Origin: Nitrospira sp.
GTDB lineage: Bacteria; Nitrospirota; Nitrospiria; Nitrospirales; Nitrospiraceae
Assembly (NCBI GenBank): GCA_025360665.1
Contig: JANYBU010000288.1
Coordinates: 5,855 to 69,854 of the forward strand
Length of the DNA: 64,000 bases
Direction of reading: 5' to 3'
Shown here: one piece after another, positions 9,969 through 57,244 of the stretch
How the letters are laid out: every line of letters starts with the position of its first letter
How positions within the stretch are numbered: position 1 is the first letter of the stretch
The notes under the pieces: model-generated
Databases searched by the model: none
The model's input: the letters and a program-made list of their open reading frames with translations, nothing else
Told to the model about the DNA's origin: nothing
Program-made: the position numbers and the translations under genes

Positions 9969-10038
9969 CAACAAATTCACGCCATCAGCTATCAGCTCTG
10001 ACCTATAAGCTGACCGCCGATAGCAAGGAGGCTTTACT

Positions 10039-33327: not shown

Positions 33328-33371
33328 CGCTCCTATTCATGCGCGTGTCTGTTGCATTCGACGGGACGCGC

Positions 33372-33411
33372 GAAGGTGAACGGTTCGAGGTTGAAGCTCC
33401 AGGCTTCCTAA
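33372..33411 (+). terminator. Perfect 11-bp hairpin after the GGDEF gene
   Basis: GGTTCGAGGTT (33372-33382), an 18-nt loop, then AACCTCGAACC (33401-33411). No clear U-tract. GAACT/CGAAC-rich sequence related to the palindromic element family follows. Confidence 0.4.
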
Positions 33412-33683
33412 ACCTCGAACCCAGAACTCCGAACATCGAACTGCGGCCATGCATGATCCAGTTCTCCTGTCTATCTTGCGCGTTCCGCCTTTCTTGCCGC
33501 CGCTAACCCGTAATATTTTTCCCACTCCGGCAATATTTTCCTAGCCCTGCTTATCCATCCCGCATTTTTCCCTCGATGACCGCCGGATCCATTTGAACGC
33601 TGCTCGTGCCATCGCATGGAATTCACAGTGCATGGACTGGCTGGCCGCTCACGTGACTTGCTGAACAACAGGCGGCAGACAGA

Positions 33684-33698
33684 TGGCATGCATGTTGC
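33684..33698 (+). promoter_or_regulatory. Sigma54 promoter upstream of flgF (TGGCAT-N5-TTGC)
   Basis: TGGCATgcatgTTGC has exact spacing. It is about 41 nt upstream of ATG 33739 (AAGGAG RBS). Confidence 0.7.
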
Positions 33699-33738
33699 GA
33701 TATGGCTTGGCGTCATCGCCACGCAAGGAGCTACAGAG

Positions 33739-34509: not shown

Positions 34510-34513
34510 GACC

Positions 34514-34574
34514 GTAAGCGTATCTCGTTGCGCGTTGTTTGTCAGATTCGGAAGAACGCGCCTCACGCTTCACG
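34514..34574. repeat. Short member of the GTGAAGCG...CGCTTCAC palindromic element family (flgF-flgG spacer)
   Basis: GTAAGCGTATCTCG ... stem GCGCGTT/AACGCGC ... CACGCTTCACG. The left end matches element A (45201-45214) in AAGCGTATCTCG. Confidence 0.6.
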
Positions 34575-34601
34575 AACCATGAGAGACGTAGGAGGGTTTC
34601 T

Positions 34602-35393: not shown

Positions 35394-35429
35394 GAGAGAT
35401 CGCCTGTCACGTACAGAGGAGCTTCCGAT

Positions 35430-36930: not shown

Positions 36931-36934
36931 TGCC

Positions 36935-37213
36935 ATGGAGGTGAAGAGCGTGAAGCACAACATGAGATGGGCGGCAGGCATCTCCTGGGAGGAGTGGCAC
37001 CGCATGGTCGTGATGCGATCTTTGAAAATGATGGTCATGAGCGGGGTCGTCCGTCGGGCCAATCTTAATCCCCCGCTGGTTCACTTCGACTCAGCGGAGG
37101 GTGGATCGGATGGGCAGGGAGGGGATCAACCCTCTGCGGACAGCCTGGCGGAACCAGGTTGGCTCGCCAGAATGTTTTTTAGTCGGGAGTACCTCTTGCG
37201 CCGACACCATTGA
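36935..37213 (+). other. Possible 92-aa ORF filling the flgH-flgI spacer (unsupported hypothetical)
   Basis: ATG 36935 follows the flgH stop by 4 nt, and the stop TGA 37211-37213 overlaps the flgI TTG start. G/C is enriched at codon position 3, but the protein (MEVKSVKHNMRWAAGISWEEW...) has no recognisable motif. Confidence 0.25.
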
Positions 37214-38379: not shown

Positions 38380-38401
38380 ATAGCGTATGATATTATTATA
38401 G

Positions 38402-38857
38402 ATGTACATCTACACGCAGGAATCAGAGGGCTTTATCTTGAATCACGATCTTACAGGGCTCAGTTCTATAAGACAGACGGCTGATGCTCAATTGAGCTTC
38501 TCGCAGCCTGCAATACTAAGAACGCAGGAGCGGCAAGCAGGGATGGCCTCTCTCAATAATGCCGCGCAGGAATTTGAAAGTTATTTTATCGCTAATCTAT
38601 TGAAAGTTATGAGAGAAACGGTTCCAAAAGTGGCTGTAGACAATAAAGGCGGCGCCTATTTTTACTCGTTTTACGACCAGGAGATCGGCCGCCTAGCAGC
38701 AGAGTCTGGCGGGCTTGGATTGGCCAGATTGATTCATGAATATACGGAAAAAAACTCATTTCTCCCCTCAAGTTTTCAGGCTCACAAGCCGATAGAGGAG
38801 CCGACAGGTATTAATGCCCCAGTTCCAGTAGCACGCACTCAGAGTATTCGGGGCTAA
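38402..38857 (+). CDS. flgJ: Rod-binding FlgJ-like protein (single domain, no muramidase)
   Basis: 151 aa. AAQEFESYFIANLLKVMRETVPK...FYSFYDQEIGRLAAESGGLGLARLI matches the FlgJ N-terminal rod-binding domain. No glucosaminidase or peptidase domain follows. The gene looks AT-richer than its neighbours by eye. Confidence 0.8.
   Translation: MYIYTQESEGFILNHDLTGLSSIRQTADAQLSFSQPAILRTQERQAGMASLNNAAQEFESYFIANLLKVMRETVPKVAVDNKGGAYFYSFYDQEIGRLAAESGGLGLARLIHEYTEKNSFLPSSFQAHKPIEEPTGINAPVPVARTQSIRG
38768..38794 (+). promoter_or_regulatory. Sigma28 promoter upstream of flgM (inside the 3' end of flgJ)
   Basis: cCTCAAG-ttttcaggctcacaa-GCCGATAGAG (TCAA-N16-GCCGATA). flgM carries a sigma28-dependent promoter in the enteric paradigm. 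Confidence 0.65.
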
Positions 38858-38879
38858 TTGAGGGAGAGGAGACAAGGTT

Positions 38880-39182
38880 ATGCAGATCTCAGGTCATGGC
38901 AGAGCCGATCATCTTGCCACACTGCTGCTCGGTGCCCAGGAGGGCGCTCCGGTCGGGCCGAATCGTCGCACATCTAGCGATGGTCGCAAAGATCGCGTGC
39001 AGATCTCTCAGCAGGCGAAGGAGATTCAACGGATTAGGGCCTTAGCGGATCAGCCGGACGCCGCACGTGAAGCACGCATCGAGCAGATTAGCCGGTCGGT
39101 GGAGGCCGGCACGTACAATGTTGCAGGGCGCAAGGTCGGGGATGCGGTCATTCGTCACGCATTGACCGACGCGGCGCTCTAA
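38880..39182 (+). CDS. flgM: Anti-sigma28 factor FlgM
   Basis: 100 aa. C-terminal RIEQISRSVEAGTYNVAGRKVGDAVIRHAL is typical of FlgM. It sits upstream of flgN. Confidence 0.85.
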   Translation: MQISGHGRADHLATLLLGAQEGAPVGPNRRTSSDGRKDRVQISQQAKEIQRIRALADQPDAAREARIEQISRSVEAGTYNVAGRKVGDAVIRHALTDAAL

Positions 39183-39272
39183 TCCGTCCTCTCTCTGTTT
39201 CGGGGAACCGATCTGAGCAGAAGGCGGCAGAGGCCCATACTGACTGAGACGAAACCCGACAGAAAGAGGCAC

Positions 39273-39782
39273 ATGTCCAACACCGCGTCCGCTGCCGCTT
39301 CCATTCTCGATATCTTCACTCGTGAAGAAGCCCACTGCGATCTGCTGCATCAGACCCTGCAACAGGAACGGAACGCCATCCGCCGGCTGTCCGTAACAGA
39401 ATTCCCCACGCTCAACGAGCAGCGGCTCAGCAATCTCCAACAGCTCCAATCTTTAGAGTCTGAACGTGCGGCAGTGGTTAATCGCTTCGCCGATGCCTGG
39501 GGCCTTCCCCGCACAACTGTCACGTTGCAGGCCATCATCGATCGGCTCGACATGGGGGACAAGCAAAACGTCGAGCGATGCCACGAGCGGCTCGCGGAGA
39601 AAGTCCGTGTGTTGCGCCAAGAAACCGCTGTGAATGGGTTGCTCGTGGCCGGCATCCAAACGCTGTGCCGCAAGGCGATGCATCTCACAGGCGAGGCCCT
39701 TCCGAAGCGGGACACCTATTCAGCGTCCGGGGAATCTCAACGCGTAGGGATCGGTGGCACCATGCTCAGGCAAAGAGGATAA
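39273..39782 (+). CDS. flgN: FlgN-family export chaperone (for FlgK/FlgL)
   Basis: 169 aa, helical. The FlgN-like N-terminus reads LLHQTLQQERNAIRRLSVTEFPTLNEQRLSNLQQLQSLE. It sits between flgM and flgK. Confidence 0.7.
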   Translation: MSNTASAAASILDIFTREEAHCDLLHQTLQQERNAIRRLSVTEFPTLNEQRLSNLQQLQSLESERAAVVNRFADAWGLPRTTVTLQAIIDRLDMGDKQNVERCHERLAEKVRVLRQETAVNGLLVAGIQTLCRKAMHLTGEALPKRDTYSASGESQRVGIGGTMLRQRG

Positions 39783-39791
39783 AGACGCATC

Positions 39792-41816
39792 ATGGGACTC
39801 GATGGATTACTCGATATCGGAAAAAGCGCACTCAGTGTCGCGCAACAGGCGCTGACAGTTACCGGTCACAACGTCGCCAATATCAACACGCCGGGCTATT
39901 CCCGGCAGGAGGCGGTAGTAACCGAACGGTCTCCGGTGGGTGGAAATCCAGGCCAGGTGGGAACCGGCGTCCAGGTCACACAGATCCGGCGCATCGTCGA
40001 CAGTTTTATCAACCGGGAAATTACGGCTTCCAATTCAGTGATCGGTCAACTCAACATCTCCAATGATCAATTGTCCCAGATCCAGAATATTTTCGGCGAT
40101 TCCAATAATCAAGGGATCGGCACGCAACTGACCGATTTTTTCAGTAGTCTCCAGGATGTTGCCTCAAGCCCCTCCGACGTCACCCCGCGCTCGGTGCTGC
40201 TGTCTAAAGCGAACTTTCTCACCAGCGGGTTTAATCAAGTGGCCGGCGAACTGTCTGCGCGTCGGAGCTCCGTGAACGATCAAGTGAAACAGACGATCAC
40301 CGAAATCAACAGCCTGACTTCGCAGATTGCAGAGCTGAACGGAAAGATCGTGTCCGCAGAGATGACAGGACAGAATGCCAACGATTTGCGCGATCAACGG
40401 GATCAGGCCATCAACGACCTGGCACAGCGCGTTGACATCTCGGTGATCGACGGGGGAAACGGTGCGGTATCCGTGTTTGTCGGGCGGGGTCAGGTGGTCG
40501 TCGAAAATACTATTTCGCGCAACCTGGTCGGCGTGGCCACGCTGGACAACGGTGGCATGGCGAACGTCCAATACGACATGGGGAATGGCAAGTCGATAGA
40601 CATTTCCTCGCTCATTTCAGGTGGCAAGCTCGCAGGTCTTCTCACGATCCGCGACACGATTATCCCGGGGCTTCAAACCTCCTTCGATAAGCTCTCGGCC
40701 AGCCTCGTGAACGAGGTCAACCAGATCCATCGGCAAGGGTACGGGCTCGACGGGTCGACGGGGCTCGATTTCTTCTCGCCGCTCACCGTGACGACGCATG
40801 ACAAGTCTACCAATCAGGGCAGCGCCACTCTCGCGAGCGGACCGATTACCGCGAACAGCCTGCTGACACTTCAGGATTACGAAATCAAATTTTCGACCCC
40901 GACCAGTTACTCCATCGTCAATACGACGACTGGGGCGACCATCAAGGGGAACTATACCGGCACCCCTGTCACGGCACCGAGCGCGGATGTGCCGGTGAAC
41001 ATCGTGACAGGAACCAACGACACAGTAGCGGTCACCGTTGATGGAACCGCGTCCGGAACGATCACCTTGACAGGGGCTGCCTCGCCGGGACAATCGTACA
41101 CGAGTGGAGCCTCCCTGGCGGCGGAGTTGCAAACGAAGATTAATGCGGATGCCACCCTCTCAGCGGCGGGGAAAAGTGTCGCGGTCACCTATGACACGAC
41201 GACCAGCCGCTTCATTATCACTTCGAACGCCTCGACAGCGGCCTCCGCGGTCAATGTCACCGGGGGGACTGCGCAAGCCACACTTGGGCTTAGCGCTGGA
41301 ACCAGCACGGCCGCGTCAGGAACCTATGCCGGCCCACAAACATTCGCGATCGACGGTATACAGGTGACCTTAAGCGGGACAGCCGCGACCAATGACGTGT
41401 TCTCCTTCAATTCCTACAGCGATACGGCTAAGTCGATCAGCATGTCACTGACGAGCGCCGGCAAGGTCGCCGCGTCTTCAACCAGGGCCGGTGTTCCCGG
41501 TAATAACGATATTGTGATGGCGCTGGTCGCCTTGCAAACAAAAGCCTTATCCACCCTTGGCAGTGCTACGTTCAACGACGCCTATCGAACTGCCGCCACC
41601 GGCGTGGGAGTGGCGGCTCAATCCGCGAATGGCAAACTCCAGGCCCAAACGATGCTGCAAGAGCAATTAGACTCGTTCAGGGCCCAGTCGTCCGGCGTCT
41701 CGATCGATGAGGAACTGGTCAATGTCATGAAGTATCAGCGTGCATTTGAGGCGGCATCCCGGCTCATTATCGCGACGGACGAGATGCTACAAACGTTGCT
41801 GGACTTGAAGAAGTAA
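39792..41816 (+). CDS. flgK: Hook-filament junction protein 1 FlgK
   Basis: 674 aa. N-terminal LLDIGKSALSVAQQALTVTGHNVANINTPGYSRQ and C-terminal SGVSIDEELVNVMKYQRAFEAASRLIIATDEMLQTLLDL. Confidence 0.95.
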   Translation: MGLDGLLDIGKSALSVAQQALTVTGHNVANINTPGYSRQEAVVTERSPVGGNPGQVGTGVQVTQIRRIVDSFINREITASNSVIGQLNISNDQLSQIQNIFGDSNNQGIGTQLTDFFSSLQDVASSPSDVTPRSVLLSKANFLTSGFNQVAGELSARRSSVNDQVKQTITEINSLTSQIAELNGKIVSAEMTGQNANDLRDQRDQAINDLAQRVDISVIDGGNGAVSVFVGRGQVVVENTISRNLVGVATLDNGGMANVQYDMGNGKSIDISSLISGGKLAGLLTIRDTIIPGLQTSFDKLSASLVNEVNQIHRQGYGLDGSTGLDFFSPLTVTTHDKSTNQGSATLASGPITANSLLTLQDYEIKFSTPTSYSIVNTTTGATIKGNYTGTPVTAPSADVPVNIVTGTNDTVAVTVDGTASGTITLTGAASPGQSYTSGASLAAELQTKINADATLSAAGKSVAVTYDTTTSRFIITSNASTAASAVNVTGGTAQATLGLSAGTSTAASGTYAGPQTFAIDGIQVTLSGTAATNDVFSFNSYSDTAKSISMSLTSAGKVAASSTRAGVPGNNDIVMALVALQTKALSTLGSATFNDAYRTAATGVGVAAQSANGKLQAQTMLQEQLDSFRAQSSGVSIDEELVNVMKYQRAFEAASRLIIATDEMLQTLLDLKK

Positions 41817-41833
41817 CGCAGAGAGATGAGGCT

Positions 41834-44302
41834 ATGAGAGTCACCGAACAACAGACCTACAACCTTCTGGTCAATAGCATTCAGCGTGCTAGAGCGAAGG
41901 CGCTGGCGACGCAGGTGCAAATTTCATCCGGCAAGAAAGTAGTCCAACCGTCTGATGACGCCAGCGCGTTTGACCGCATCGTGTCGACCAAAGCCTCGAT
42001 TGGGAAAGTTGACCAACACGTCCGCAACCTTGACGTCGCCACGACTCGCCTTGACCTGACGGACAGCACGTTGAGCGGTGTGACAAACGTCCTGGCACGG
42101 ATCAAGGAACTCGCCGTTCAGTTTGCCAGCAGCACGAATGGTCCTTCCGACCGGGAGATCGGCGCGCAGGAAGTGAAACAGCTCTTCCTCCAGCTCCAAC
42201 AACTTGGGAACACTGAATATGCCGGGGGGCAATCGGTCTTCAGCGGCACCAGCCGGAATGGGCGTGCCACGGGTGTCTCCATTACCGCCCCCGTCGCACT
42301 GACAAGCGGCACCAATGATTCACTGATTGTTAAGGTCGATGGGACTACGTCCGGAACGATTACCCTCGGGACCGCATCACTGAGCGGTTCCGGATTGGCC
42401 GCACTCGTACAAAGCAAGATTAATGCGGATGCCACCCTGTCAGCGGCAGGAAAAAGCGTAACGGTGACCTTCGACACCGATCATCTCGTCGTCACATCAA
42501 ACAATAACGGCCAGACGTCCTCAGTCGAAGTTATCGGCGGAAGCGGCCTCACGAGTCTCGGCTTCAACGGCGGCAGCACGACCACGGGGTTTTCTCCCTT
42601 TGCCCTCCGCGCTTCGACGAGTGTCGGTGCGCGGAATACGGTCGGCGGCGCCGCGATCTCGCAAGGGACGGTGCAGAACCAGAACGCCGCCACCCTCAAC
42701 GACTATCTGGTGAAGTTCAGCGCCGCGACCACATTCGATGTCTACAACGTTTCCACGGCCGTGAATGTCGTGGCGAACAGCACGAATACCGGAGGCGCGG
42801 TGAAGAGCGACAGCGGCGTGGTCGATACCAGCCGCGTGACACTGGACAACTACGAGGTACGATTGAAGAATATCTATACGGTGACGGCCGGGACCAATGA
42901 CGGGATTCAATTCGATCCCGGCACGGGCCCGGTGACGGCAACGCTGGCCCCCGGCGTGTATACCGGCGCCCAACTTGCTGTCCAGGTTAAGGCCGCCATG
43001 GAGGCGGTAAGCGGGGGGACGACCTACACGGTCGGCTTTAACGAGACCACCGGCAAGTTTGATATCACAAACAATGGGAGCAACGCGACGGCTCTGAGCC
43101 TTCTGTACTCCAACGCGGCTTCGACAGCCAAGTCATTGCTTGGTTCGTCCGGAACCGACCAAAGCGCCATTGCGGTTGGTAGCACCGCGACGAGCAATGT
43201 GGATACGACCGGGTTGGCCGGAGTATCCAAGCAATCGAACGTGTACGATACCACCCTCGCGACCAACATCTTCAACATCACCTCGTCCAATAACAAGTTG
43301 ATCGTCAACGATACGGCGGGTGGGGCCGGAGCCGATACGACGATTACACTGTCTCTTGGCAGCTATACCGGGGCGCAGCTGGCGACGGAGTTGGCGACGC
43401 AGTTGAACGCAAGCCGAGCCGCTGCCAATACGGTCGCCTACACGGTGTCATCCGGATCCGTTACGGCCGGCCGGTTCACGATCAACAACCCAGCCGGCAA
43501 TGCCAATTCGCTCATCATAAAGTTCGGCAATGCCGGCTCCACCGCCGCGCAGATCCTGGGCTCGACGGCCGCCACCGTGACGGAGACCGTGGGGGCCTCT
43601 GCCTCCACGCTGAACCACGATGCGGGCTATACGACGTATCTGTCCGGCGCGAGCATCGACTTCGACGGGCTTCGGGTCGTCCTGCAGGATGGGACAACGG
43701 GACCGCGCAACGGGGACGTGTTCACTGTCGCGCAAGCACGGAAAACGGTATTGTCGAATCAGTCCTATGTCTCCGGCGGCGCGATCGACATAGAGGGTCT
43801 GCGGTTCTCGCTTCGCGACGGCGCGACGGCTTCGGCAAGCGGCGATCTGTTCACGGTCCAGACGGGAGTGCAATACCAGGGCAATTCGGGACTGCAAACC
43901 ATCGAGATCGGCGACGGGCAGACGGTCAAGACCAATATGCCAGGGAATCAGATTTTTAGCGGCCCTACAACCGACCTCTTCAACTCCGTGAAAAACCTCG
44001 CCGCAGCGTTGAACGGCAACTATGGGGGGGGGATTCAACAAAGCTTAACCAACGTCGATGCAGCGGTGGATCAGGTCGCTATTGCGCAGGGTGAAGTCGG
44101 TGCGTTGTCCAATCAGCTCGTAACGACTAAGACAAGCCTCGATGACACCAAGACCTTTCTCACGACCATTCTCTCCAACAACGAAGATGTCGATCTGGTG
44201 GCAGCCATTTCGGAGTTGACGCTCCAGCAGCAAGCCATTCAAGCAGCGGGGGCAACCCTCAATCGTATTTTCGAAAGCTCCCTTCTCAACTTCTTGAAAT
44301 AA
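41834..44302 (+). CDS. flgL: Hook-filament junction protein 3 FlgL (unusually long, 822 aa)
   Basis: N-terminal MRVTEQQTYNLLVNSIQRARAKALATQVQISSGKKVVQPSDDASAF and C-terminal NEDVDLVAAISELTLQQQAIQAAGATLNRIFESSLLNFL are FlgL/flagellin-superfamily termini. It follows flgK. The central ~550 aa consist of repeated modules. Confidence 0.85.
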   Translation: MRVTEQQTYNLLVNSIQRARAKALATQVQISSGKKVVQPSDDASAFDRIVSTKASIGKVDQHVRNLDVATTRLDLTDSTLSGVTNVLARIKELAVQFASSTNGPSDREIGAQEVKQLFLQLQQLGNTEYAGGQSVFSGTSRNGRATGVSITAPVALTSGTNDSLIVKVDGTTSGTITLGTASLSGSGLAALVQSKINADATLSAAGKSVTVTFDTDHLVVTSNNNGQTSSVEVIGGSGLTSLGFNGGSTTTGFSPFALRASTSVGARNTVGGAAISQGTVQNQNAATLNDYLVKFSAATTFDVYNVSTAVNVVANSTNTGGAVKSDSGVVDTSRVTLDNYEVRLKNIYTVTAGTNDGIQFDPGTGPVTATLAPGVYTGAQLAVQVKAAMEAVSGGTTYTVGFNETTGKFDITNNGSNATALSLLYSNAASTAKSLLGSSGTDQSAIAVGSTATSNVDTTGLAGVSKQSNVYDTTLATNIFNITSSNNKLIVNDTAGGAGADTTITLSLGSYTGAQLATELATQLNASRAAANTVAYTVSSGSVTAGRFTINNPAGNANSLIIKFGNAGSTAAQILGSTAATVTETVGASASTLNHDAGYTTYLSGASIDFDGLRVVLQDGTTGPRNGDVFTVAQARKTVLSNQSYVSGGAIDIEGLRFSLRDGATASASGDLFTVQTGVQYQGNSGLQTIEIGDGQTVKTNMPGNQIFSGPTTDLFNSVKNLAAALNGNYGGGIQQSLTNVDAAVDQVAIAQGEVGALSNQLVTTKTSLDDTKTFLTTILSNNEDVDLVAAISELTLQQQAIQAAGATLNRIFESSLLNFLK

Positions 44303-44315
44303 GAGGTGGCGTCCC

Positions 44316-44341
44316 TCAAGAATTGTTGAAAGAGGCCGATA
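44316..44341 (+). promoter_or_regulatory. Sigma28 promoter upstream of csrA-fliW
   Basis: cCTCAAG-aattgttgaaagag-GCCGATAC (TCAA-N15-GCCGATA) starts 14 nt after the flgL stop, about 115 nt upstream of the csrA ATG. Confidence 0.65.
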
Positions 44342-44346
44342 CTATG

Positions 44347-44428
44347 TTCGCTGGCGTCGTTCGTTTTCTCGCGTTTCGGGTTGTTTGACGAACTAGAAAC
44401 AAGCAAATCGAAACTTGAAACGTGCAAG
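44347..44428. repeat. GTTTC/GAAAC heptad element within the predicted csrA 5' leader
   Basis: GGCGTCGTTCGTTTTCTCGCGTTTCGGGTTG ... GAACTAGAAACAAGCAAATCGAAACTTGAAACG. The left arm aligns with element B (51836-51870). The right arm carries GAAAC at 7-nt multiples. Confidence 0.55.
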
Positions 44429-44455
44429 CTGTGGCATTTGCCAGGGAAGGCATCA

Positions 44456-44701
44456 ATGTTGGTCCTTACGCGTCGGCGTGGAGAAGGCGTCACGATCGGC
44501 CCAACTATCCGGGTGGTCGTGCTCGGAATCAAGGGTGGCCAGATTCGTTTAGGGATCGAAGCGCCCCCTACGGTCGAGATCCATCGAGACGAAGTCTGTG
44601 CCAGAATTCAAGAAGAAAACCAATCGGCAGCCTGTACCGGGGTGGTTCCACTGGCTGCCTTCCGGCGTTTCCTGCCTACCGGGCGACGCTCAATTGCGTG
44701 A
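44456..44701 (+). CDS. csrA: Carbon storage regulator CsrA (flagellar-type)
   Basis: 81 aa from ATG 44456. MLVLTRRRGEGVTIGPTIRVVVLGIKGGQIRLGIEAPPTVEIHRDEV is the CsrA signature. The track start 44381 is an upstream extension. Confidence 0.95.
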   Translation: MLVLTRRRGEGVTIGPTIRVVVLGIKGGQIRLGIEAPPTVEIHRDEVCARIQEENQSAACTGVVPLAAFRRFLPTGRRSIA

Positions 44702-44710
44702 GGTACGATC

Positions 44711-45190
44711 ATGAAGTTTTCTTCGACTCGCTTCGGTGCACTTGAGGTGCCTGACAGCGCGATTCTGACCTTTCCCTCCGGCATCCTGGGATTTCCGGAC
44801 TGGAGCCGCTACGTCATTCTGGATTACGACACCGACGCGCCGTTCAAGTGGCTTCATTGTATTGAGGAATCAAGTCTGGCATTCGTCGTGCTCGATCCCG
44901 TCCTGTTCCATGCGAATTATCGGGTAGAGATCCCGGATGAAGTCTTGGCGGAAGTGAAGGGCACTGCTGCGGACGCTTTGACTCTGGCTGTCATTCTGAC
45001 CATTCCATCGGAGGATCCAGGCCGTATCACGGCAAATCTTCGCGGGCCACTCCTCATGAACCCCTCCACCAAGCTGTGTAAGCAGATGGTCCTCTCAGAC
45101 GAGTACCCAACCCGCTATCCGATTTTTGCCATGCCGAGTGTGCGCCAGTCCGTACAGACAGAGTCACGGTCCGAAGCCATTCCCGCCTAA
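44711..45190 (+). CDS. fliW: Flagellar assembly factor FliW (CsrA antagonist)
   Basis: 159 aa. FPSGILGFPDWSRYVILDYDTDAPFKWLHCIEESSLAFVVLDP... matches the FliW family. It is adjacent to csrA. Confidence 0.9.
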   Translation: MKFSSTRFGALEVPDSAILTFPSGILGFPDWSRYVILDYDTDAPFKWLHCIEESSLAFVVLDPVLFHANYRVEIPDEVLAEVKGTAADALTLAVILTIPSEDPGRITANLRGPLLMNPSTKLCKQMVLSDEYPTRYPIFAMPSVRQSVQTESRSEAIPA

Positions 45191-45194
45191 AAAT

Positions 45195-45317
45195 CCCTCG
45201 TGAAGCGTATCTCGTGAAACGCAGTTCGCGAACGACGTTTCAGGTTTCTAGTTTCTCGTTGTCGCGGAGGTAGAAACGCGCAACTCGAAACTTGCTCGAG
45301 AGATACGCTTCACGGGG
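45195..45317. repeat. ~120-nt palindromic element A (likely bidirectional terminator between fliW and the hybrid kinase)
   Basis: A perfect 15-bp outer stem, CGTGAAGCGTATCTC (45199-45213) with GAGATACGCTTCACG (45300-45314). Inner arms carry three tandem nnGTTTC heptads (45236-45256) facing GAAAC repeats (45273-45293). The element is flanked by AAAAA and TTTTT. Confidence 0.75.
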
Positions 45318-45320
45318 TTT

Positions 45321-48197
45321 TTATGCAGCGGGCCTTCTGGCGTCGCGTTGGCGCCTGCGCTGCGCTTCCAGAATCCGAACAAGGCGAAGCACCGCAGCCT
45401 CAAGCTGGGTGTAGATCATCGGGGCATCGAGCAGCGTGCCGAGCCGTCCGAGTGCTTCCAACTGGCCGGCGGCCAAGACGACTTCCGGTGCGCAGAGATT
45501 CCCGGCGGTGCCTTTCAAGAGGTGGGCGGCTTCTTCGATGGCCCGTTGATCTCTACTGGCCAAGGTGGCGCGGATGTTCTCCAACATGGGCTGATAGCGC
45601 TGGAGAAACAGACCAATCAGCTGGTCCAACAGCTCCCGATCGCCGCCGATGTTTCGTAACATCGTGGCCCTATCAAAGATCACCGGGATGGCTTCAGCGC
45701 TATGCTCTGCGTTGGGGTGTGTGGCAATGCCGTCATCCGTGGCCTGCGAATGCCTGGATACCGGAATCCATCGATCGAGGATTCCTTTGAGGTCTTCTTT
45801 TCGTAGGGGCTTCGTTAAATAATCGTCCATACCGGCGGCGAGACAGCGCTCTCGATCTCCTTGCATGGCATTGGCCGTCAACGCGATGATCGGAATATGG
45901 CGTGCCAGGGTCGAGTCGGCTGCGGCAGATTCCTGAGCGGTTGCTTCACGCTGGCGAATGAGTCTGGTCGCCTCGAATCCATCGACGAGCGGCATCTGAC
46001 AGTCCATCAGGACCACGGCATAGGAGCCACGGCCCAATGCGGCCAGCGCTTCTTGACCGTTTTCCACGACGTCCGATTGGTAGCCGAGTTTCTCTAACAT
46101 GCGAACGGTCAGTTTCTGATTGATGAGATTGTCTTCAGCCACCAGGACGCGCGGGGCCGACAGTGTTTCTGCGAGGGTATGCCGTGTGATGAGCAGGGGG
46201 GCAGGCGCGATAACCGCTCTTGGCTTCCCTTCATTCACAAGTCCTGACAATCCCAGCACGGTTCTCAAACAGTTCGAGAGTTGATCGTGGCGGACTGGTT
46301 TGGTGAGATACGCGACGAATCCGGCTTGGCGCGCCAGTTCCGCATGCCCTCGCTGAACGAGTGAGGTGAGGATCACGAGACGGATGAGCGATCCAACAGG
46401 ATGGGCCTTCAGTTCTTTGGCGAGTTGTAATCCATCCTTGCCTGGCATCAACATATCGACGATGGCCACATCATAGAACAAGCCGTTCTCCGCTCGCTGC
46501 TCGATCAGCGCCATGGCTGCGGTGGCATCTGGGGCTTGATCGTCGACCATGCCCCATCCTGTGACCAGGTGATGGACAATCATCCTGTTCGATTCATTGT
46601 CGTCTACGATTAGTACGCGACGTGCGGTCAAATCGGCCGACGGCACGATGGCCAAGGGGGACGTCGTTTGTTTGAGGAAGTGAGCGGTGCACCAGAATGT
46701 GCTGCCGTGACCCGATCGACTGGTGATGCCGACGCTGCCGCCCATTTGTTCGGTGAGCTGTTTCGAAATCGCGAGCCCTAAACCGGTGCCCCCGTATTTG
46801 CGGGACGTCGAACTATCAGCTTGGGTAAACGGTTGGAAGAGGCGAGCCTGCACCTCCGGGGGGATACCGATGCCGCTATCGGTGACTTCGAACCGGATGA
46901 CCACCGCGTCGGCCAAGTCCTTCTCTAGAAAGGCTTGAACCGTCACGTCGCCCTTTTCAGTAAACTTGATCGCATTGCCGACGAAGTTCGTGAGAATCTG
47001 ACGGAGTCGCCCCGGATCGCCGCGGAGACCGGTCGGTACGGACGCATGCACCAGGCCGGTGATTTCCAGTCCTTTGGTCTGCGCCCGCTCCGCAAATTGA
47101 CCCAAGACATTTTCCACCGTCGTGCGAAGATTGAAGTCGATACATTCCAGTTCCAGTTTGCCGGCTTCGATCTTGCCGTACTCAAGAATATCGTTAATCA
47201 AGTTCAGTAAGGCCTCGCCGCACTGTCGAATCGTTTCGATATAGGATTGTTGTTCCTCCGAAGGCTCCGTATCCATCAATAAGTCCGTCATCCCAATGAC
47301 TCCATTCATCGGCGTCCGCAACTCGTGGCTCACGGTCGCCAGGAACGACGCCTTCACGCGAGCGGCATCCTGTGCTTCCTGGAGCGCCTGATCCAATTGA
47401 CGGTTGTTGTTGCGAAGGTGCTCGGCTGCCCGGCACAGCTCCTCTTGGGCCGCCTTGACCTCGGTCATATCCACCGCATACCCTCGGACCAATTGATGAG
47501 AAGGGACTGGGCAGAAAATCCACGTGAAACTTGCCTGAGGTAAGCAGACGTCCTCCCCCCGTATTTCCTGTCCTGATTCGAGGCAGCGTTGAACGAGCAG
47601 CGACAGTTCACGAGGAACCACGGCGGGAAATCCATGGGTGTCGTAGCCAAACTGCTTCAGCAACTGCGTCATCGCAGGATTCGCATAGATGAGGCTCGCA
47701 TCGGCGTCCAACTCGATAACAGGGGAAGGACTTTCTTCCGCCACGCGCACTAGGCGGTCGCGATCTTGCTGCAGCTCTCTCTCGTGAGTCAGGTCACGTA
47801 TCATCAACACCCCACCGGTGTCTCCCTGTGTGTCCAGTGGGGCATAGGTCCATTCAACCGGATATGATTCGTGTGTGGGGCCTGTGAGCGTCGTCTGGGC
47901 TTTTTGTATGGGGAGACGATCGGGAAGGGACTCGTGAATGCGTGTCACGATGTTGTGGCCGGATGTCCCAGGTCGCTGTCGCAATACTTCTTGGAGCGGT
48001 TTCGATGCGCAGAACTCAGCCGAGTGTCCCACGAGGCGGGCGGCTTCAGCGTTCACAGACAAGATGCGAAGCCGACTATCGAGCAGCACCATCCCGATCG
48101 GGAGCCTATCCAGCGTCGCATGGTTCAGAAAGTTCTGGAGCTTGGATGATCTCGAAGGGCGAGATGCCCTGGTGCGAATCTTTGTTGGAGGTTTCAT
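45321..48197 (-). CDS. Hybrid sensor histidine kinase (PAS-HisKA-HATPase-REC-REC-HPt)
   Basis: 958 aa. PAS-like segments, H-box SHELRTPMNGVIG, HATPase (GGTGLGLAISK), two receivers (VAIVDMLMPGKDG; VVLMDCQMPLVDG) and a C-terminal HPt (AHLLKGTAGNL). Confidence 0.9.
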   Translation of the reverse strand: MKPPTKIRTRASRPSRSSKLQNFLNHATLDRLPIGMVLLDSRLRILSVNAEAARLVGHSAEFCASKPLQEVLRQRPGTSGHNIVTRIHESLPDRLPIQKAQTTLTGPTHESYPVEWTYAPLDTQGDTGGVLMIRDLTHERELQQDRDRLVRVAEESPSPVIELDADASLIYANPAMTQLLKQFGYDTHGFPAVVPRELSLLVQRCLESGQEIRGEDVCLPQASFTWIFCPVPSHQLVRGYAVDMTEVKAAQEELCRAAEHLRNNNRQLDQALQEAQDAARVKASFLATVSHELRTPMNGVIGMTDLLMDTEPSEEQQSYIETIRQCGEALLNLINDILEYGKIEAGKLELECIDFNLRTTVENVLGQFAERAQTKGLEITGLVHASVPTGLRGDPGRLRQILTNFVGNAIKFTEKGDVTVQAFLEKDLADAVVIRFEVTDSGIGIPPEVQARLFQPFTQADSSTSRKYGGTGLGLAISKQLTEQMGGSVGITSRSGHGSTFWCTAHFLKQTTSPLAIVPSADLTARRVLIVDDNESNRMIVHHLVTGWGMVDDQAPDATAAMALIEQRAENGLFYDVAIVDMLMPGKDGLQLAKELKAHPVGSLIRLVILTSLVQRGHAELARQAGFVAYLTKPVRHDQLSNCLRTVLGLSGLVNEGKPRAVIAPAPLLITRHTLAETLSAPRVLVAEDNLINQKLTVRMLEKLGYQSDVVENGQEALAALGRGSYAVVLMDCQMPLVDGFEATRLIRQREATAQESAAADSTLARHIPIIALTANAMQGDRERCLAAGMDDYLTKPLRKEDLKGILDRWIPVSRHSQATDDGIATHPNAEHSAEAIPVIFDRATMLRNIGGDRELLDQLIGLFLQRYQPMLENIRATLASRDQRAIEEAAHLLKGTAGNLCAPEVVLAAGQLEALGRLGTLLDAPMIYTQLEAAVLRLVRILEAQRRRQRDARRPAA

Positions 48198-49537
48198 CAG
48201 GCCGCCTCCTCGTGAATACCGTCAAGAAACATGGCCACATTCACTCGTTCATGAACGGGATCCAGCACCTTCGTGATGGTTCGCATTGAAGCCCCTGTTG
48301 CCTGGGCTCCAAGATCGACGCGAATCGGCGTGAGATACGATCCCCCCTGTGGCCCAGTGATCACTTTCACGACCGGCTTGAGCCGCTGCGTGTGATTCAT
48401 CCCCACGACCACCGCCTGTTCTGCCGTGTTCAACAGGACTAGACTGCCGATCGGATACACGCCAAGACTGCCAATCATGGCTTGGATCAAATCCTTTGCA
48501 TACTGCCCTGTATCCCCAAGACGAAACAGCTGTCGGATAGCATCATGCGGCAGCATCGCCGGACGCCCTCCACGGCGGCTCACCATGCCGTCATAGGCGT
48601 CTACCAGGCCGACCAGTTGTGACAAGACTGAGAGGGAGTCTCCCTGGAGCTTGTGCGGGAACCCGCTCCCATTGCTGCACTCATGATGTTCCGCGACAAT
48701 TCGAACGACTGCCTTACGGTCCTCTTTTGCCTCCCGTAAGATCGCCAGTCCCAGTACTGGATGCTGTTGCATGAGCGTGCGCTCTTGCTCCGTGAGATCA
48801 TGGCTTTTACGGTACAGATTCCGCGGCAATCGGATATAGCCGATGTCGTGCAGCAACGCGCCGGCGCCGAGCGCTTCCAGCTTTCCCTCCGCAACCCCAT
48901 AGGCATGCGCCACAATGAGCGAGAGGGTACAGACATCGAGTGCGTGTGAGGCCAACGTGCGATCGAACCGCTTCATCTTTTGGAGAGAGAGAAGACTGAG
49001 CATGGCGGCGCCATCATCCAGCACACGGGAGAGTACATTCGTGACGACCATTCGCAACGTATCTGGGCGAGGTACGATGCCCGCTTCTAACTCTTCAAAC
49101 ATGCGCTCCATCGAACAGGTCGCTTCTGTGTAGGTCGCTTGGGCGGCCGCGGCATGCATCTGTGCGTTCGACGGCGAAGGCGCCTCTTCCTGCGTGACAG
49201 GCTGCTGCCGCTGCGCTGTTGTTCTCTCTGCGCTGTAGGCTGGCTGAGGAGCCTCTTCTGACAAGGCCGGCTTCACCTCCAGGCTTGGTTGGGGGGTGGC
49301 GGCTGCGTCCTGAGCGCTCGACGATGGCGGCGTGTCGCCTGACGGGACTGGCTCGACATCGAAACCTTGGCTAGGGTCGATCTTCACCTCTTTGATGCCA
49401 TGTCGTCGGAGGAGATCAATGTCCTCCTGGTGGCGGATGAGGCGTTTATGGAAGAGGAAGGGGGTCCGATGCCAAGGCAGGTCCACCTCAACCATGAACA
49501 TCCCCGGTCTGAGTTGATCGATCGTGATCGTTTTCAT
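48197..49537 (-). CDS. HD-GYP-domain c-di-GMP phosphodiesterase-type protein
   Basis: 446 aa. LLHDIGY (HD) and EHHECSNGSGFPHKL (a GYP-motif variant). Its stop overlaps the start of the hybrid kinase in an ATGA arrangement. Confidence 0.85.
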   Translation of the reverse strand: MKTITIDQLRPGMFMVEVDLPWHRTPFLFHKRLIRHQEDIDLLRRHGIKEVKIDPSQGFDVEPVPSGDTPPSSSAQDAAATPQPSLEVKPALSEEAPQPAYSAERTTAQRQQPVTQEEAPSPSNAQMHAAAAQATYTEATCSMERMFEELEAGIVPRPDTLRMVVTNVLSRVLDDGAAMLSLLSLQKMKRFDRTLASHALDVCTLSLIVAHAYGVAEGKLEALGAGALLHDIGYIRLPRNLYRKSHDLTEQERTLMQQHPVLGLAILREAKEDRKAVVRIVAEHHECSNGSGFPHKLQGDSLSVLSQLVGLVDAYDGMVSRRGGRPAMLPHDAIRQLFRLGDTGQYAKDLIQAMIGSLGVYPIGSLVLLNTAEQAVVVGMNHTQRLKPVVKVITGPQGGSYLTPIRVDLGAQATGASMRTITKVLDPVHERVNVAMFLDGIHEEAA

Positions 49538-49636
49538 GTGTCGTATCTATGATGCCGAACGATGTGTGCGTATAGGACTGCTGAACAGACTGATTGCATG
49601 ACCCTCCCGTGAGAGCGAGAGTCCTGCTCACTGTGC

Positions 49637-49663
49637 TATCGGGATAAATAGGGCAGAACTTGA
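49637..49663 (-). promoter_or_regulatory. Sigma28-like promoter for the HD-GYP/hybrid-kinase operon
   Basis: The minus strand reads gGTCAAG-ttctgccctatttat-CCCGATAGC (TCAA-N16-CCCGATA), about 100 nt upstream of ATG 49537. Confidence 0.4.
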
Positions 49664-49731
49664 CCCAATTGAAGGGGATTCCAGCTCAACGTGCTGTGCT
49701 GGTTACCGTGACGCCGGCCCATCGTATCACC

Positions 49732-49757
49732 TCAAGATTCTCATCTCGGCACCGATA
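49732..49757 (+). promoter_or_regulatory. Sigma28-like promoter for the second HD-GYP/PilZ unit
   Basis: cCTCAAG-attctcatctcggc-ACCGATAGAG (TCAA-N15-ACCGATA). It is divergent from the minus-strand site at 49637-49663. Confidence 0.5.
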
Positions 49758-49835
49758 GAGTTCATCAGAACCCGTTGCTCTTTGATGAGACTCGGTGCCG
49801 CCGCTGTCCCGCATCCTCAGAGGACCATGCGAAAC

Positions 49836-51057
49836 ATGCGAAAACGGATTTCCATTGATCAGCTGAAAATCGGCATGAAGGTCGAGAAACTCGACCGCTC
49901 CTGGTTGGCTACGCCGTTCTTGCGTCATAAGTTCACGATTACGTCCTCAGAACAAATCGAGCAACTGCACGCCAGCGGTGTCCAACTACTTGATGTCGAT
50001 GCTGACGACGCATACCAGGACTCCGGCTCGTTCATACCAGCTATGGCAGCGGAGACTGAAACCCCTCAGCCGGCATCTCTACCCCTGGAGCCCGAACCGT
50101 CAGCCACCCGTTTGCCGAAGAGCTGCCCGCAGCACAACAGGCCTACAAGAGCGCTAAATTGATCATTCAACAGGCCATGGAAGACATCCGGATGGGTCGC
50201 GCGCTGAACATGGAGGCGGTCAGTGAAGTTGTCGGGAGCATGGCTGACAGCATCCTGCGCAGCCCTGACGCGCTCACCAGTCTGACGCGCCTCAAACAGT
50301 TCGACGAATACACCTTTTTTCACTCCGTCAACACCTCCATCCTGGCACTCTCGGTCGGGAGACATCTCGGGTATAGGCGCGCGCCACTGCTTCAGCTGGG
50401 AACCGGCATGTTGTTGCACGACATCGGTAAAACGCAAATCCCGATCGAGATTCTGAACAAGCTGGGGCGCTACGAGGCCGACGAGTTCGAGATCATGAAG
50501 CAACATGTCCTACGCGGGGCGGAGATCCTGTCGCACACCACCGGCCTCACCGATATGTTTCTGAAGCCCACCCTGGAGCATCATGAGCGGGTTGACGGGA
50601 CTGGGTACCCCCATCAACGATCCAGAACAGACCTCAGTCAGTTTGGCCGTATTGCCGCCATTGTGGACATTTATGATGCCGTGACGAGCGACCGTTGTTA
50701 TCACAAAGGGAAAACACCGCACGATACCCTTCAGATTCTCTATCAATTGGGTACTCGGGGCCATGTGGACGGAGAGCTGGTCCAACAGTTCGTGCAGGTC
50801 GTGGGGGTCTATCCCGTCGGTTCATGTGTCTCGCTCAATACGGGCGAGAGGGCGATCGTGAAGCAAGTCAATCACCACGCTCCACTACAACCCCTGGTCG
50901 TGCTGATCACGGATGAAGAGGAGCACGTGCGATCTAGCCCCGCGACCTCGACCTCGCCGCGCAGCTCCAAAAACCGAATCGGACAATCGCGTCGATTCTT
51001 GATCCAACCACCTTGGGGGTCAATCCTTGCCACTATCTTGATAAGGACGCCACATGA
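49836..51057 (+). pseudogene. HD-GYP paralog interrupted by two single-base frameshifts
   Basis: It consists of three colinear pieces in three reading frames.
- The N-terminus (MRKRISIDQLKIGMKVEKLDRSWLATPFLRHKF...) parallels the start of ORF 48197-49537.
- The HD-GYP core (LLHDIGK, LEHHERVDGTGYP) lies in the frame of ORF 50159-51199.
- The tail (PRDLDLAAQLQKPNRTIASILDPTTLGVNPCHYLDKDAT*) is in the third frame and parallels RVDLGAQATGASMRTITKVLDPVHERVNVAMFLD.
- The shifts lie within 50060-50105 and 50930-50945, both in C-runs. Confidence 0.75.
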
Positions 51058-51797
51058 CGGAACCAGAGTATGCCCCCGCACGTTCGTCGATTCTCATGGT
51101 CGGACTACCGCTCCAGCTGGTGATCGGGTCCGGCCAAGGCAAAGTGAACTGTGGATCCACATTGCTGGGCTGGAAAGAGAGGGCCTGGCTGATTTGTGAA
51201 TGGCCGTTTCATTTCGGGCAAGCCGTCCCCTGCGAAGCGGGCACTCGGTGTCTCGTTCGCTATCTGGTAGACGGTAAGCTCATCGGCTATGAAAGCGAAG
51301 TCTGCACCACCCAGACTTCTCCTGTCCCACTCCTGTATCTTGCGTTTCCGAAGACCGTCGAAGAAATCCACCTCCGTAAACATGTGCGCGTCCCCAGCAA
51401 TGAGCCGCTACTCCTGATACGTGTCGATGGGAGGGGGGCGGTCTGTGTCGATTCGAAGGGGGTTTCGACGATGGGCGGCCTCGTCCAGGACCTCAGTGTG
51501 GCTGGGTGTCGAGTGGTGTTTCAGCAATCGCGTCTCATCTTCCTCCTGGGCTCCACCGTCCACCTGGAATTCGAGTTGATCGGAATCGGGCACGTGAGCA
51601 ATCTCACCGGCGTGATCAAGAACGTGGCTGAACATGAGAATACGAAATCCATCGGCATCGAGTTTTGCTTCGATGGGAAGGAGTGCATCGAGTATCGCGG
51701 ATGGGGAGGTAGCGTACAGAAAGCCATTGAGCATGCCGTGCTGCAAAAGCAGCATACGCTCGACATGGCGCCCGATACGGTATCTGAATCACCCTAA
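51054..51797 (+). CDS. YcgR-like PilZ-domain c-di-GMP receptor
   Basis: 247 aa. RxxxR (LRKHVRV) and DxSxxG (DLSVAGC) PilZ motifs follow an N-terminal PilZN-like half. The ATG overlaps the frame-restored stop of the HD-GYP paralog (ATGA). Confidence 0.8.
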   Translation: MTEPEYAPARSSILMVGLPLQLVIGSGQGKVNCGSTLLGWKERAWLICEWPFHFGQAVPCEAGTRCLVRYLVDGKLIGYESEVCTTQTSPVPLLYLAFPKTVEEIHLRKHVRVPSNEPLLLIRVDGRGAVCVDSKGVSTMGGLVQDLSVAGCRVVFQQSRLIFLLGSTVHLEFELIGIGHVSNLTGVIKNVAEHENTKSIGIEFCFDGKECIEYRGWGGSVQKAIEHAVLQKQHTLDMAPDTVSESP

Positions 51798-51829
51798 CCT
51801 GAGTTCGGCAGCCTGGGAAGCTCGTCATC

Positions 51830-51948
51830 CGTGAAGCGTCGTTCCGTTCGTCGCCGTCGGTTTCGGGCTTGGAGTTTCCAGTTCCGAGTTTCAAGTTGTC
51901 GTGAAACAGCCTCTGAAACTCGGAACTTGCAACATGAAACGCTTCACG
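51830..51948. repeat. ~120-nt palindromic element B downstream of the PilZ gene
   Basis: Outer 10-bp stem CGTGAAGCGT (51830-51839) with ACGCTTCACG (51939-51948). Inner perfect 14-bp stem AGTTCCGAGTTTCA (51880-51893) with TGAAACTCGGAACT (51914-51927). Both arms carry heptad-spaced GTTYC/GRAAC. Confidence 0.75.
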
Positions 51949-52182
51949 TAGTTCCAGTTTCCCCGTGCGCCCCCTCGCCCGATCGCCGCATGTCCCGGAA
52001 TCATCTTGCCCGCTGACCGGAAATTTTTGCCTGGCAAGGCCAGCGTACAGCCGGCTATTCCGACAAAACCCCCGTCATCCACGCTGCCACAGGCTTCTGC
52101 CTGCGGCACGCGAATTGAACTCCGCGACATGTCTCTGGGCCGTGTTATTCGGGTGGTGACGAACCAAGATCATACCGGGCGC

Positions 52183-52208
52183 TCAAGTTTTTTTCAGGCT
52201 TGTCGATA
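52183..52208 (+). promoter_or_regulatory. Sigma28-like promoter at the head of the glycosylation island
   Basis: gCTCAAG-tttttttcaggctt-GTCGATAGAG (TCAA-N15-GTCGATA). It is strikingly similar to the flgM site, including TTTTCAGGCT in the spacer and GATAGAG. It lies about 30 nt before the first island ORF. Confidence 0.5.
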
Positions 52209-52239
52209 GAGTAATTACTCACTGTATGAATGGTGGCCC

Positions 52240-57190: not shown

Positions 57191-57244
57191 AGAAGCAGTC
57201 AGCCGCAGCGATGAGCTAAGAGCTGATAGCTCAAGGAGAAGAAG

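Follow-up and report, generated by a model that had tools for sequence, protein, structure and literature searches.

The subject of this analysis is a set of palindromic intergenic elements in a 64,000-nucleotide stretch of DNA from Nitrospira sp. (GenBank assembly GCA_025360665.1, contig JANYBU010000288.1, positions 5,855 to 69,854 of the forward strand; hereafter the window); an earlier, sequence-only reading had grouped four of them as related, in the spacers between fliW and a kinase gene (A), after a PilZ gene (B), in the csrA leader (C) and between flgF and flgG (D). Elements A, B and D, and in a looser sense C, are probably the local representatives of a large, rapidly evolving population of non-coding hairpins made of periodic words, which occupies intergenic spacers across Nitrospira. 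The arms of each palindrome are runs of a tandemly repeated 7-nt word. The repeat class is real, abundant and genus-wide, and A and B are typical composite members, in which a CGTGAAG/CGTATCT outer clamp surrounds an inner GTTTC/GAAAC hairpin. Such elements, scattered and modular, were found in every member of the genus that was searched, and orthologous sites show their gain, loss or replacement. The genome was searched as an assembly (G000) of 3.14 Mb in 450 contigs, with 57% G+C and 78% completeness, in which the window is contig C285. The elements and their parts are located as follows (positions of the window; palindromic features carry no strand).

45191..45322, no strand: element A, whole palindrome; 23-nt arms 87% complementary, folding z-score -5.99 on the plus and -6.59 on the minus strand.
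45199..45215, no strand: left clamp of A, heptads CGTGAAG CGTATCT CGT; identical 17-23-nt module at about 17 other loci.
45297..45314, no strand: right clamp of A, CGAGAGATACGCTTCACG, complement of the left clamp, from sequence and folding.
45214..45242, no strand: inner hairpin 1 of A, GTGAAACG-CAGTTCGCGAACGA-CGTTTCA, from folding; its AGTTCGCGAACGACG module is common with G000:C181:3076.
45243..45291, no strand: inner GTTTC/GAAAC heptad hairpin of A, from folding, lag-7 scan and ortholog comparison.
51815..51963, no strand: element B, extended palindrome downstream of the PilZ/YcgR gene, with weaker complementarity out to these limits; z -4.96.
44347..44428, plus strand: element C, GTTTC/GAAAC word insert in the csrA 5' untranslated region (UTR), downstream of a CTCAAG...CCGATA promoter-like motif; no clamp.
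34512..34574, plus strand: element D, a clamp-type hairpin in eroded form, CCGTAAGCGTATCTCGT ... ACGCTTCACG, occupying the flgF-flgG spacer as far as the ribosome-binding site of flgG; z -1.67.

Element A fills the whole 130-nt gap from the fliW stop codon (45188-45190) to the stop codon of the convergent kinase gene (45321-45323), in the order AAAAATCCCT-CGTGAAGCGTATCTCGT ... ACGAGAGATACGCTTCACG-GGGGTTTTT, with an A-run before the palindrome and a T-run after it; element B lies 18-33 nt 3' of the YcgR-like PilZ gene. The paired termini that had been noticed in A and B are present in both, with CGTGAAGCGT at 45199-45208 and ACGCTTCACG at 45305-45314 in A, and at 51830-51839 and 51939-51948, respectively, in B. 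The lag-7 scan likewise agrees with the description of GTTTC heptads on the left and GAAAC heptads on the right of both elements; it flags 45233-45262 in A and 51869-51897 in B, where the inner GTTTC/GAAAC hairpin spans 51874-51933. The single hairpin of about 45 bp envisaged for the whole element was not recovered: the minimum-energy fold of A is an 18-bp outer clamp stem around two to three smaller hairpins (GTGAAACG...CGTTTCA; GTTTC/GAAAC), and that of B a 10-bp clamp around a 14-20-bp GTTTC/GAAAC hairpin and a side stem. Stable predicted structure is a property of A and of B (z -4.96 and -4.11 on the two strands), for which no shuffle was as good on either strand; D is weak in this respect, and C folds like its shuffles (z -0.01). 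The proposed kinship of the four elements was accordingly borne out in full for A and B, for D in the form of an eroded copy (with one mismatch in the left end GTAAGCGTATCTCG, a perfect right clamp, and homologues in six other genomes), and for C through its GTTTC/GAAAC words only, the GTGAAGCG ends being absent. No open reading frame is enclosed by the arms of A, B, C or D, and the covariance models of Rfam 15 gave no match at E <= 1 on either strand of 33000-53000.

Further copies abound in the genome. The terminus CGTGAAGCGT and its complement occur in 75 copies (40 and 35), against about 6 expected for a random 10-mer, and period 7 gives 74 runs of at least four CGTNNNN units (CGTGAAA, CGTGAAG, CGTGAGG, CGTATCT, CGTCAGG and others), where periods 5, 6, 8 and 9 give 0-3. 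In an unbiased lag scan, lag 7 yielded 151 tracts and lag 9 yielded 320, compared to 12, 38 and 7 at lags 5, 8 and 10; additional word families are GAAGTTC/GGGGTTC, TCAGCNN, GCTGAAGG, the 9-mers of GGTTTGTCT, and GCGAGAAAAGCGGGAC, some families using 8- or 9-nt instead of 7-nt words. By home-made, crude gene calls (81% coverage), 77-85% of the lag-7 and lag-9 tracts fall outside genes (117 of the 151 lag-7 tracts are mostly intergenic), and about 265 of some 1,800 gaps of at least 30 nt, or about one in seven, hold at least one tract. The rule that the elements sit at operon boundaries and never inside genes is too strong, since C lies in the csrA 5' UTR, D inside the flgF-flgG operon, and about 17% of the lag-7 tracts within these crude gene calls. 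Tandem, convergent and divergent gaps hold 84, 14 and 19 lag-7 tracts, which is near the gap-length background, so that, taken as a whole, the population extends beyond gene ends; a terminator-only distribution was rejected on the same grounds, the depletion in divergent gaps (16% of tracts vs. 22% of gap length) being too small. Outside this genome, the pattern CGTGAAR-CGTGAAR-CGT was found in all 18 same-genus genomes searched and in none of 12 genomes from three other families of the order; GTGA-phased heptads elsewhere in the phylum are patchy. Among public sequences, a neighbouring-family gene has its nearest relatives in Nitrospira sp. metagenome-assembled genomes, at 98% identity.

The copies are modular. 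Matches between A and other loci are limited to the 17-23-nt clamp (about 17 loci), 39 nt at C181 and 20 nt at C50:9090; B has 36 nt in common with C50:9033, and C50:9019-9125 is a third composite of clamp and GTTTC hairpin. The inverted terminal module CGTGAAGCGTATCTCG, 16-23 nt long, recurs at about 17 other loci and together with its complement bounds A and about 13 paired loci, in the manner of the terminal inverted repeats of MITEs (miniature inverted-repeat transposable elements), with element lengths from 49 to 156 nt. The same clamp bounds hairpins with GGATTCGGA-type loops (C50:15239, C15:4399, C50:20351), hairpins of 9-mer words, and also a conserved core about 110 nt long; inside, word modules are combined as mosaics, and no single consensus is copied. 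The arms of clamp hairpins are true mirror images, with the odd word CGTATCT at the same rank in each arm.

Several observations on this repertoire stand apart from the window elements. Hairpins of 9-nt words (GGTTTGTCT / TCTGGTTTG type; for example G000:C105:13538, C363:3322 and C172:2466) are twice as numerous as heptad hairpins by the tract counts given above, and some are bounded by the CGTGAAGCGT clamp. The CGTGAAG-clamped subfamily with the 110-nt core (TTATTCGCGCGAGACTTGCGAGAAAAGCGGGAC...; G000:C314:6384-6492, C251:3020-3145, C433:1595, C120:458, C33:2843, C164:2660; locus L025) behaves less like the word hairpins and more like a discrete element in dispersed copies; its core also flanks an IVP gene (see below) at C143 and follows fliW in genome G010. 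An identical hairpin with a TCTGCTCCC stem at G000:C11:6178, C12:55, C13:55 and C14:4556, twice at contig position 55, is possibly the end of an assembly-breaking repeated element. The TGA stop codon of a predicted 272-aa gene (G000:C15:4531-5349, minus strand, ending ...IYRKET) comes from the first CGTGAAG heptad of the adjacent element, as does the stop of a gene at C260:13282-13785; a general role of the clamp TGA as stop-codon donor to upstream genes was rejected, as 2 of 10 candidate frames match predicted genes, which makes it an occasional event and no rule.

At orthologous sites, the elements turn over rapidly. Among 22 loci after fliW, a periodic hairpin abuts the stop codon in nearly every genome, one genome being almost devoid of a spacer; at least five word families occupy this site (GTTTC, CGTGAAR, GCTGAAGG, 9-mers and the GCGAGAAAAGCGGGAC core). 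In three of the closest relatives, with FliW identities of about 90%, the site holds just a GTTTC/GAAAC hairpin, the homologue of the inner part of A, which indicates that the clamp and the first inner hairpin of A are additions in this lineage. Element C is absent from the five closest relatives, in which the CCGATA box is followed by the csrA start codon within about 45 nt; the extra insert of about 80 nt occurs in this genome and, as a diverged copy, in G010. Element B is also absent from the five closest relatives, about 60 nt of whose spacer are here replaced by B; elsewhere the spacer after the PilZ gene holds a GTTTC hairpin (G038) or a lone right clamp (G010). In the flgF-flgG spacer, clamp-type homologues of D occur in the six other genomes mentioned above, one of which, G038, has a composite of clamp and GTTTC hairpin like A; other species show four different word families (including AGCTATT, GTGATGA and a 9-nt word), and one genome has nothing. 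Comparison of filled and empty sites at B and C revealed no target-site duplication; instead, 14-60 nt of resident sequence were replaced.

The following processes would produce and maintain such a population. Arrays would lengthen and shorten by replication slippage, palindrome-templated copying would keep the arms of A, B and the clamp hairpins complementary, and recombination between dispersed copies would shuffle the modules; the elements might persist through near-neutrality; a transcribed copy would snap into a hairpin and never expose its C-rich arm for long, and single copies could be co-opted, for example as a terminator at site A. The sequence-only reading had offered a terminator or stabilizer role for the elements in general, and this is plausible for A only; U-tracts are absent after B, C and D. 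At A, the 18-bp stem is followed by GGGGTTTTT, and the mirrored A-run forms a U-tract on the opposite strand. A T-run directly 3' of the fliW-site hairpin is found in eight genomes (the present one and those of loci L019-L022, L028, L033 and L035), whatever the word family, and this retention is the best evidence for a local function of A in fliW termination; an A-run on the kinase side occurs only in the two genomes with a clamp. The hairpin and U-tract at A most likely terminate and stabilize the fliW transcript, and in this genome the A-run probably does likewise for the convergent kinase transcript. Of the window elements, A alone is likely to be of local importance; apart from supplying a stable stem to a 3' UTR, a 5' UTR and an intercistronic spacer, respectively, B, C and D most likely serve no dedicated function.

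The two arms of the hairpins come in a nearly fixed order. Of 187 periodic hairpins, 177 have more G than C in the 5' arm and 8 have more C than G; loci from other genomes place the G-rich arm 5' at a ratio of 27:1. Counted by word, the order of a word before its reverse complement prevails over the opposite order by 20:0 for GTGAAGCG, 15:0 for GTGAAACG, 30:0 for GAAGTTCG, 42:0 for TCTGGTTT and 70:2 for GGTTTGT, against 170:102 for control non-periodic intergenic hairpins, a set that still includes some family members. As the palindrome reads alike on either strand, the G-rich arm comes first in every transcript. This order may serve to keep a C-rich segment that attracts Rho from being exposed ahead of the synthesis of its partner; it could just as well have a mechanistic origin. 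The arm order would also follow if repeats were added symmetrically at the two 3' ends of a break. This was set aside for A, B and the clamp hairpins, as their arms are mirror images down to the odd words, which favours copying of one arm from the other; for the arms around IVP genes, symmetric addition may apply.

These IVP genes (PF05635, 23S_rRNA_IVP) show a second regularity. The encoded proteins are homologous to Avd, the nucleic-acid-binding accessory protein of diversity-generating retroelements (PMC10053308); they share 30-47% identity with conserved key columns and match the solved pentamers 2GSC and 2RLD. All six IVP genes of the present genome lie between periodic arrays; one of these (C15:4025-4333), flanked by CGTGAAG words, has an in-frame TAG. 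Among 34 IVP genes in the genus, flank complementarity exceeds the 95th percentile of 300 control genes in 29 and the 99th in 23, and 18 have periodic tracts on both flanks, compared to 1% of control genes. The 48 homologues from other phyla, collected with a single IVP protein as query, have a periodic flank in 44 cases and two in 30; among the 39 homologues with flank complementarity, 37 have a G-rich 5' arm, as do 22 of 22 Nitrospira-type loci. Cassettes of this kind were found in Nitrospirota, Acidobacteriota, Proteobacteria, Bacteroidota, Planctomycetota and Chloroflexota. Each cluster of IVP proteins keeps its own word family across species, a match attributable to vertical inheritance, since the members of a cluster have the same flanking genes; recent mobility of the cassettes within the genus was rejected for the same reason. 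The IVP arms, usually of 3-5 units, conserve the word core, while their variable positions do not co-vary between the arms. In a set of 81 genomes from the phylum, GTGA arrays and IVP genes tend to be found together (20 of 23 vs. 17 of 58 genomes, an odds ratio of 16 among related and hence not independent genomes; by family, 6 of 9 vs. 0 of 8, p = 0.009), and three Nitrospiraceae genomes have arrays without IVP genes. Cluster-2 IVP genes are present in 14 of 54 genus genomes and TCAGC word arrays in all 54 at similar counts; a dependence of the word family on its flanked gene, of the kind seen between REPINs (paired repetitive extragenic palindromic [REP] sequences) and REP-associated tyrosine transposases (RAYTs), was therefore rejected, with the caveat that the test is blunt, its pattern also catching related CCTTCAGC and TCAGCAC words. 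At one locus (L109; G056:C131:6785-10102), the IVP gene lies in the opposite orientation to its neighbours from that seen at the orthologous locus of six other genomes, an outcome to be expected if the inverted heptad arms have recombined.

From these associations, a wider system can tentatively be drawn, although we consider it rather improbable: hairpins like A to D would be gene-less satellites of a widespread, undescribed cassette system, in which an IVP gene sits between inverted arrays of 3-5 heptads, G-rich arm first, and its protein would recognize the arrays or help to generate or maintain them. The flank statistics, the lineage-specific words, the non-mirrored arms with conserved words and the genome-level co-occurrence are compatible with such a system, and the conserved genomic context of the cassettes and the independence of one word family from its IVP gene weaken it. 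If true, it would account for the places in which so far unexplained heptamer repeats are found (in STRR-bearing cyanobacteria, Xanthomonas, Beggiatoa and Geobacter) and why arm pairs have a fixed polarity.

A narrower proposal treats the word arrays as protein binding sites, the top candidate being the pentameric Avd-like IVP protein with A to D as satellite sites, and the alternative being nucleoid proteins as proposed for Geobacter. The inverted arrays around IVP genes within and beyond the genus, the retention of cluster-specific words across species, the conserved word cores without co-variation, the co-occurrence of arrays and genes, and the interpretation of paired octa- and heptanucleotide sites in Geobacter as regulator binding sites (PMC2700814) are all in keeping with it. 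Yet the match of words and proteins is explicable by vertical inheritance in the same genomic context, TCAGC arrays keep their numbers where cluster-2 IVP genes are missing, arrays persist in the three Nitrospiraceae genomes that lack IVP genes, and words at the A, B and D sites have been swapped between species with no sign of constraint; taken together, this makes binding sites an unlikely explanation. Given the same free exchange of words at a given site, the specific suggestion of a binding-site array for a protein that recognizes GAAAC heptads is unsupported.

Mobility is another candidate account. Non-autonomous MITE- or REPIN-like elements, whose CGTGAAGCGTATCTCG clamps would be terminal inverted repeats for an enzyme encoded elsewhere, could be inserted as whole copies into spacers, and also into the loops of hairpins already in place; this would account for the conserved inverted module with variable cargo at about 17 loci, for the subfamily of about 110 nt whose conserved core (GCGAGAAAAGCGGGAC...) recurs at at least six loci and after fliW in G010, for presence and absence at orthologous sites, and for nested architectures. 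The comparison with REP and MITE elements in the sequence-only reading is to this extent apt. Several findings weigh against the insertion of complete copies: resident sequence is replaced at the B and C sites without target-site duplication, the interiors are mosaics, with A and B matching other loci only over modules of 17-39 nt, and the clamps themselves are ordinary heptad words of the family. Both RAYT-like Y1 transposase genes (Y1_Tnp; G000:C56:222-584 and G000:C164:8720-9082) are flanked on each side by a different, GC-rich REP hairpin, CCCCGYAGCWWGCTRCGGGG, and not by heptad words, and were rejected as mobilizers; they represent a separate REP/RAYT system. A reverse-transcriptase route, as suggested by the Avd homology, was dismissed as well, as no RVT_1 gene was found in the 78%-complete genome. 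On balance, mobility of complete elements appears rather unlikely.

The proximity of A and D to csrA-fliW, both lying in the flagellar cluster, invites a regulatory interpretation, in which RNA hairpins would present GGA motifs (GCGGAGG in the apical region of A; GATTCGGAAG in the loop of D) to CsrA as a sponge or autoregulatory site tied to flagellar control. This link, raised speculatively by the sequence-only reading, is very improbable and already disfavoured: the homologous hairpins at the A site of the closest relatives lack a loop GGA, more distant relatives have unrelated words there, the GGA of D belongs to the family loop motif GGATTCGGA that recurs at unrelated loci, the copies are genome-wide and not specific to the flagellar cluster, and Rfam returned no match. 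Conserved GGA-bearing sequence is found elsewhere, directly over the csrA ribosome-binding site. There, the end of the csrA leader (44430-44455, GTGGCATTTGCCAGGGAAGGCATCA) has a small hairpin and GGA motifs that are kept in close relatives, and a distant clade has GGAG-ATTGGA-CTGCACGG instead; it is a candidate CsrA autoregulation site.

Membership in a fast-evolving hairpin population remains the preferred account of the window elements, and several points weigh against it. The near-universal G-first order and the association with a single protein family suggest more biology than would be expected of neutral filler, and the non-mirrored IVP arms fit word recognition or independent generation of the arms better than pure hairpin maintenance. 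A simple consensus terminator scan did not call A, because its loop exceeds the limit of the scan. Termination, processing, neutrality and an origin by slippage or templated repair are, finally, steps that we infer.

Heptanucleotide repeats of the STRR type (short tandemly repeated repetitive sequences) are known from heterocystous cyanobacteria. The Nitrospira elements resemble them in their tandem 7-nt units far above chance, dispersed in many, mainly intergenic copies; the published words (STRR1-3, GGGAATC, TAACTGA) and the published host groups are not matched by the present words (CGTGAAG, CGTATCT, xGTTTCx and others) and host. In Xanthomonas and Nostoc, the heptameric tandem repeats GGGAATC and GGGGA(C/T)T occupy hundreds of intergenic sites, usually with 3-5 units, and are mostly transcribed; in Xanthomonas they form 70-75 convergent pairs, "always" convergent, with the G-rich array first and then its complement (Rehm et al., 2015; PMC4692102). 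The 7-nt tandem words, the many intergenic copies, the differences in unit number between species and, in Xanthomonas, the arm order are the same as in Nitrospira. However, one G-tract word, interpreted as quadruplex-forming, dominates there, whereas the Nitrospira words (CGTGAAG, GTTTC, GAAGTTC, TCAGCNN and 9-mers) lack G-tracts, coexist as many families in nested modular hairpins, and turn over by change of family and not only of length. TAACTGA direct repeats, proposed as translational regulators, occur in marine Beggiatoaceae, some cyanobacteria and Bacteroidetes (MacGregor, 2015; PMC4679880). These are also intergenic heptamer arrays (of 2-6 units) without a known mobilizer, patchy in their phylogeny, and with stop codons in the words that close all frames within three units; nearly all of them are direct repeats facing a downstream start codon, with one inverted set, in contrast to the overwhelmingly inverted pairs of Nitrospira. 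In Geobacter metallireducens, paired octa- and heptanucleotide sites, termed "global regulator binding sites", were read as IHF/HU sites without tests (Aklujkar et al., 2009; PMC2700814). They likewise consist of pairs of 4-5 tandem words of 7-8 nt on opposite strands at variable distance, in dozens per genome and specific to the species, although no polarity rule, nesting or gene association was reported for them.

REP sequences, bacterial interspersed mosaic elements (BIMEs) and REPINs, associated with RAYT (Y1) transposases, are abundant intergenic palindromes, often directly after genes, where they can act as terminators or mRNA stabilizers (Ton-Hoang et al., 2012; PMC3333891). A single-copy cognate gene flanked by its own repeats is the pattern of the IVP genes as well; however, REPs lack internal word periodicity and are moved by an HUH transposase, whereas the IVP protein is a small four-helix bundle without known catalytic activity, and the abundance of one Nitrospira word family is independent of its flanked gene. 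Intervening sequences with an S23p/IVP reading frame interrupt the 23S rRNA genes of Leptospira and Coxiella. Their PF05635 gene lies in the loop of a long inverted repeat, as in Nitrospira; unlike these, the Nitrospira cassettes are located in ordinary intergenic DNA, and A to D have no gene. Intervening sequences of the IVP type were absent from the four Nitrospira 23S rRNA genes examined, three of which are uninterrupted. The fourth (L192; G003:C4:27300-31400) has a 666-nt insertion at GGTCCTAAGGT|AGCGAAATTCC with a LAGLIDADG-type reading frame and is group-I-intron-like. In the open-access literature searched, no description of these Nitrospira elements or of a link between PF05635/TIGR02436 and word arrays was found.

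The window elements are not flagellar or CsrA regulatory code, and a tempting interpretation is thereby removed. Nitrospira are key nitrite oxidizers and comammox bacteria, and with about one in seven gaps of this genome filled by repeats, the consequences are practical: assemblies are broken, searches for promoters and small RNAs are confounded, and UTRs diverge rapidly between species, as with the 80-nt insert in the csrA leader. The general interest is moderate, and lies in the arm-order rule and in the cross-phylum association with an Avd-like gene, which together make heptamer repeats experimentally approachable; the local meaning is ordinary.

The neighbouring genes and the other arrays of the window are located as follows.

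44456..44701, plus strand: csrA (MLVLTRRRGEG...), context gene, from sequence.
44711..45190, plus strand: fliW, context gene; PF02623, 1e-34.
45321..48197, minus strand: PAS hybrid histidine kinase, convergent with fliW, context gene; domain match.
51054..51797, plus strand: YcgR-like PilZ gene upstream of B, context gene; domain match.
33372..33445, no strand: hairpin of another heptad family, GGTTCGA/TCGAACC, upstream of flgF; z -3.98, lag-7 scan.
9969..10038, plus strand: short solo heptad array CAGCTAT CAGCTCT ... in an intercistronic spacer; lag-7 scan.
57191..57244, plus strand: short solo heptad array GAGCTAA GAGCTGA TAGCTCA in an intercistronic spacer; stop codons in all three frames.

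Two further sites had been put forward as possible degenerate relatives. The one at 33372-33440 is indeed a good hairpin (z -4) but belongs to the other word family listed above, and the one at 39190-39265 is a palindrome (z -2.9) without 7-nt periodicity. In the spacer after the PilZ gene, the closest relatives (loci L041-L045) have a GCCGATA/CCGATAG box that resembles the sigma-28 -10 motif of the cluster; the counterpart of that stretch in the window (51798-51830) has been replaced by B.

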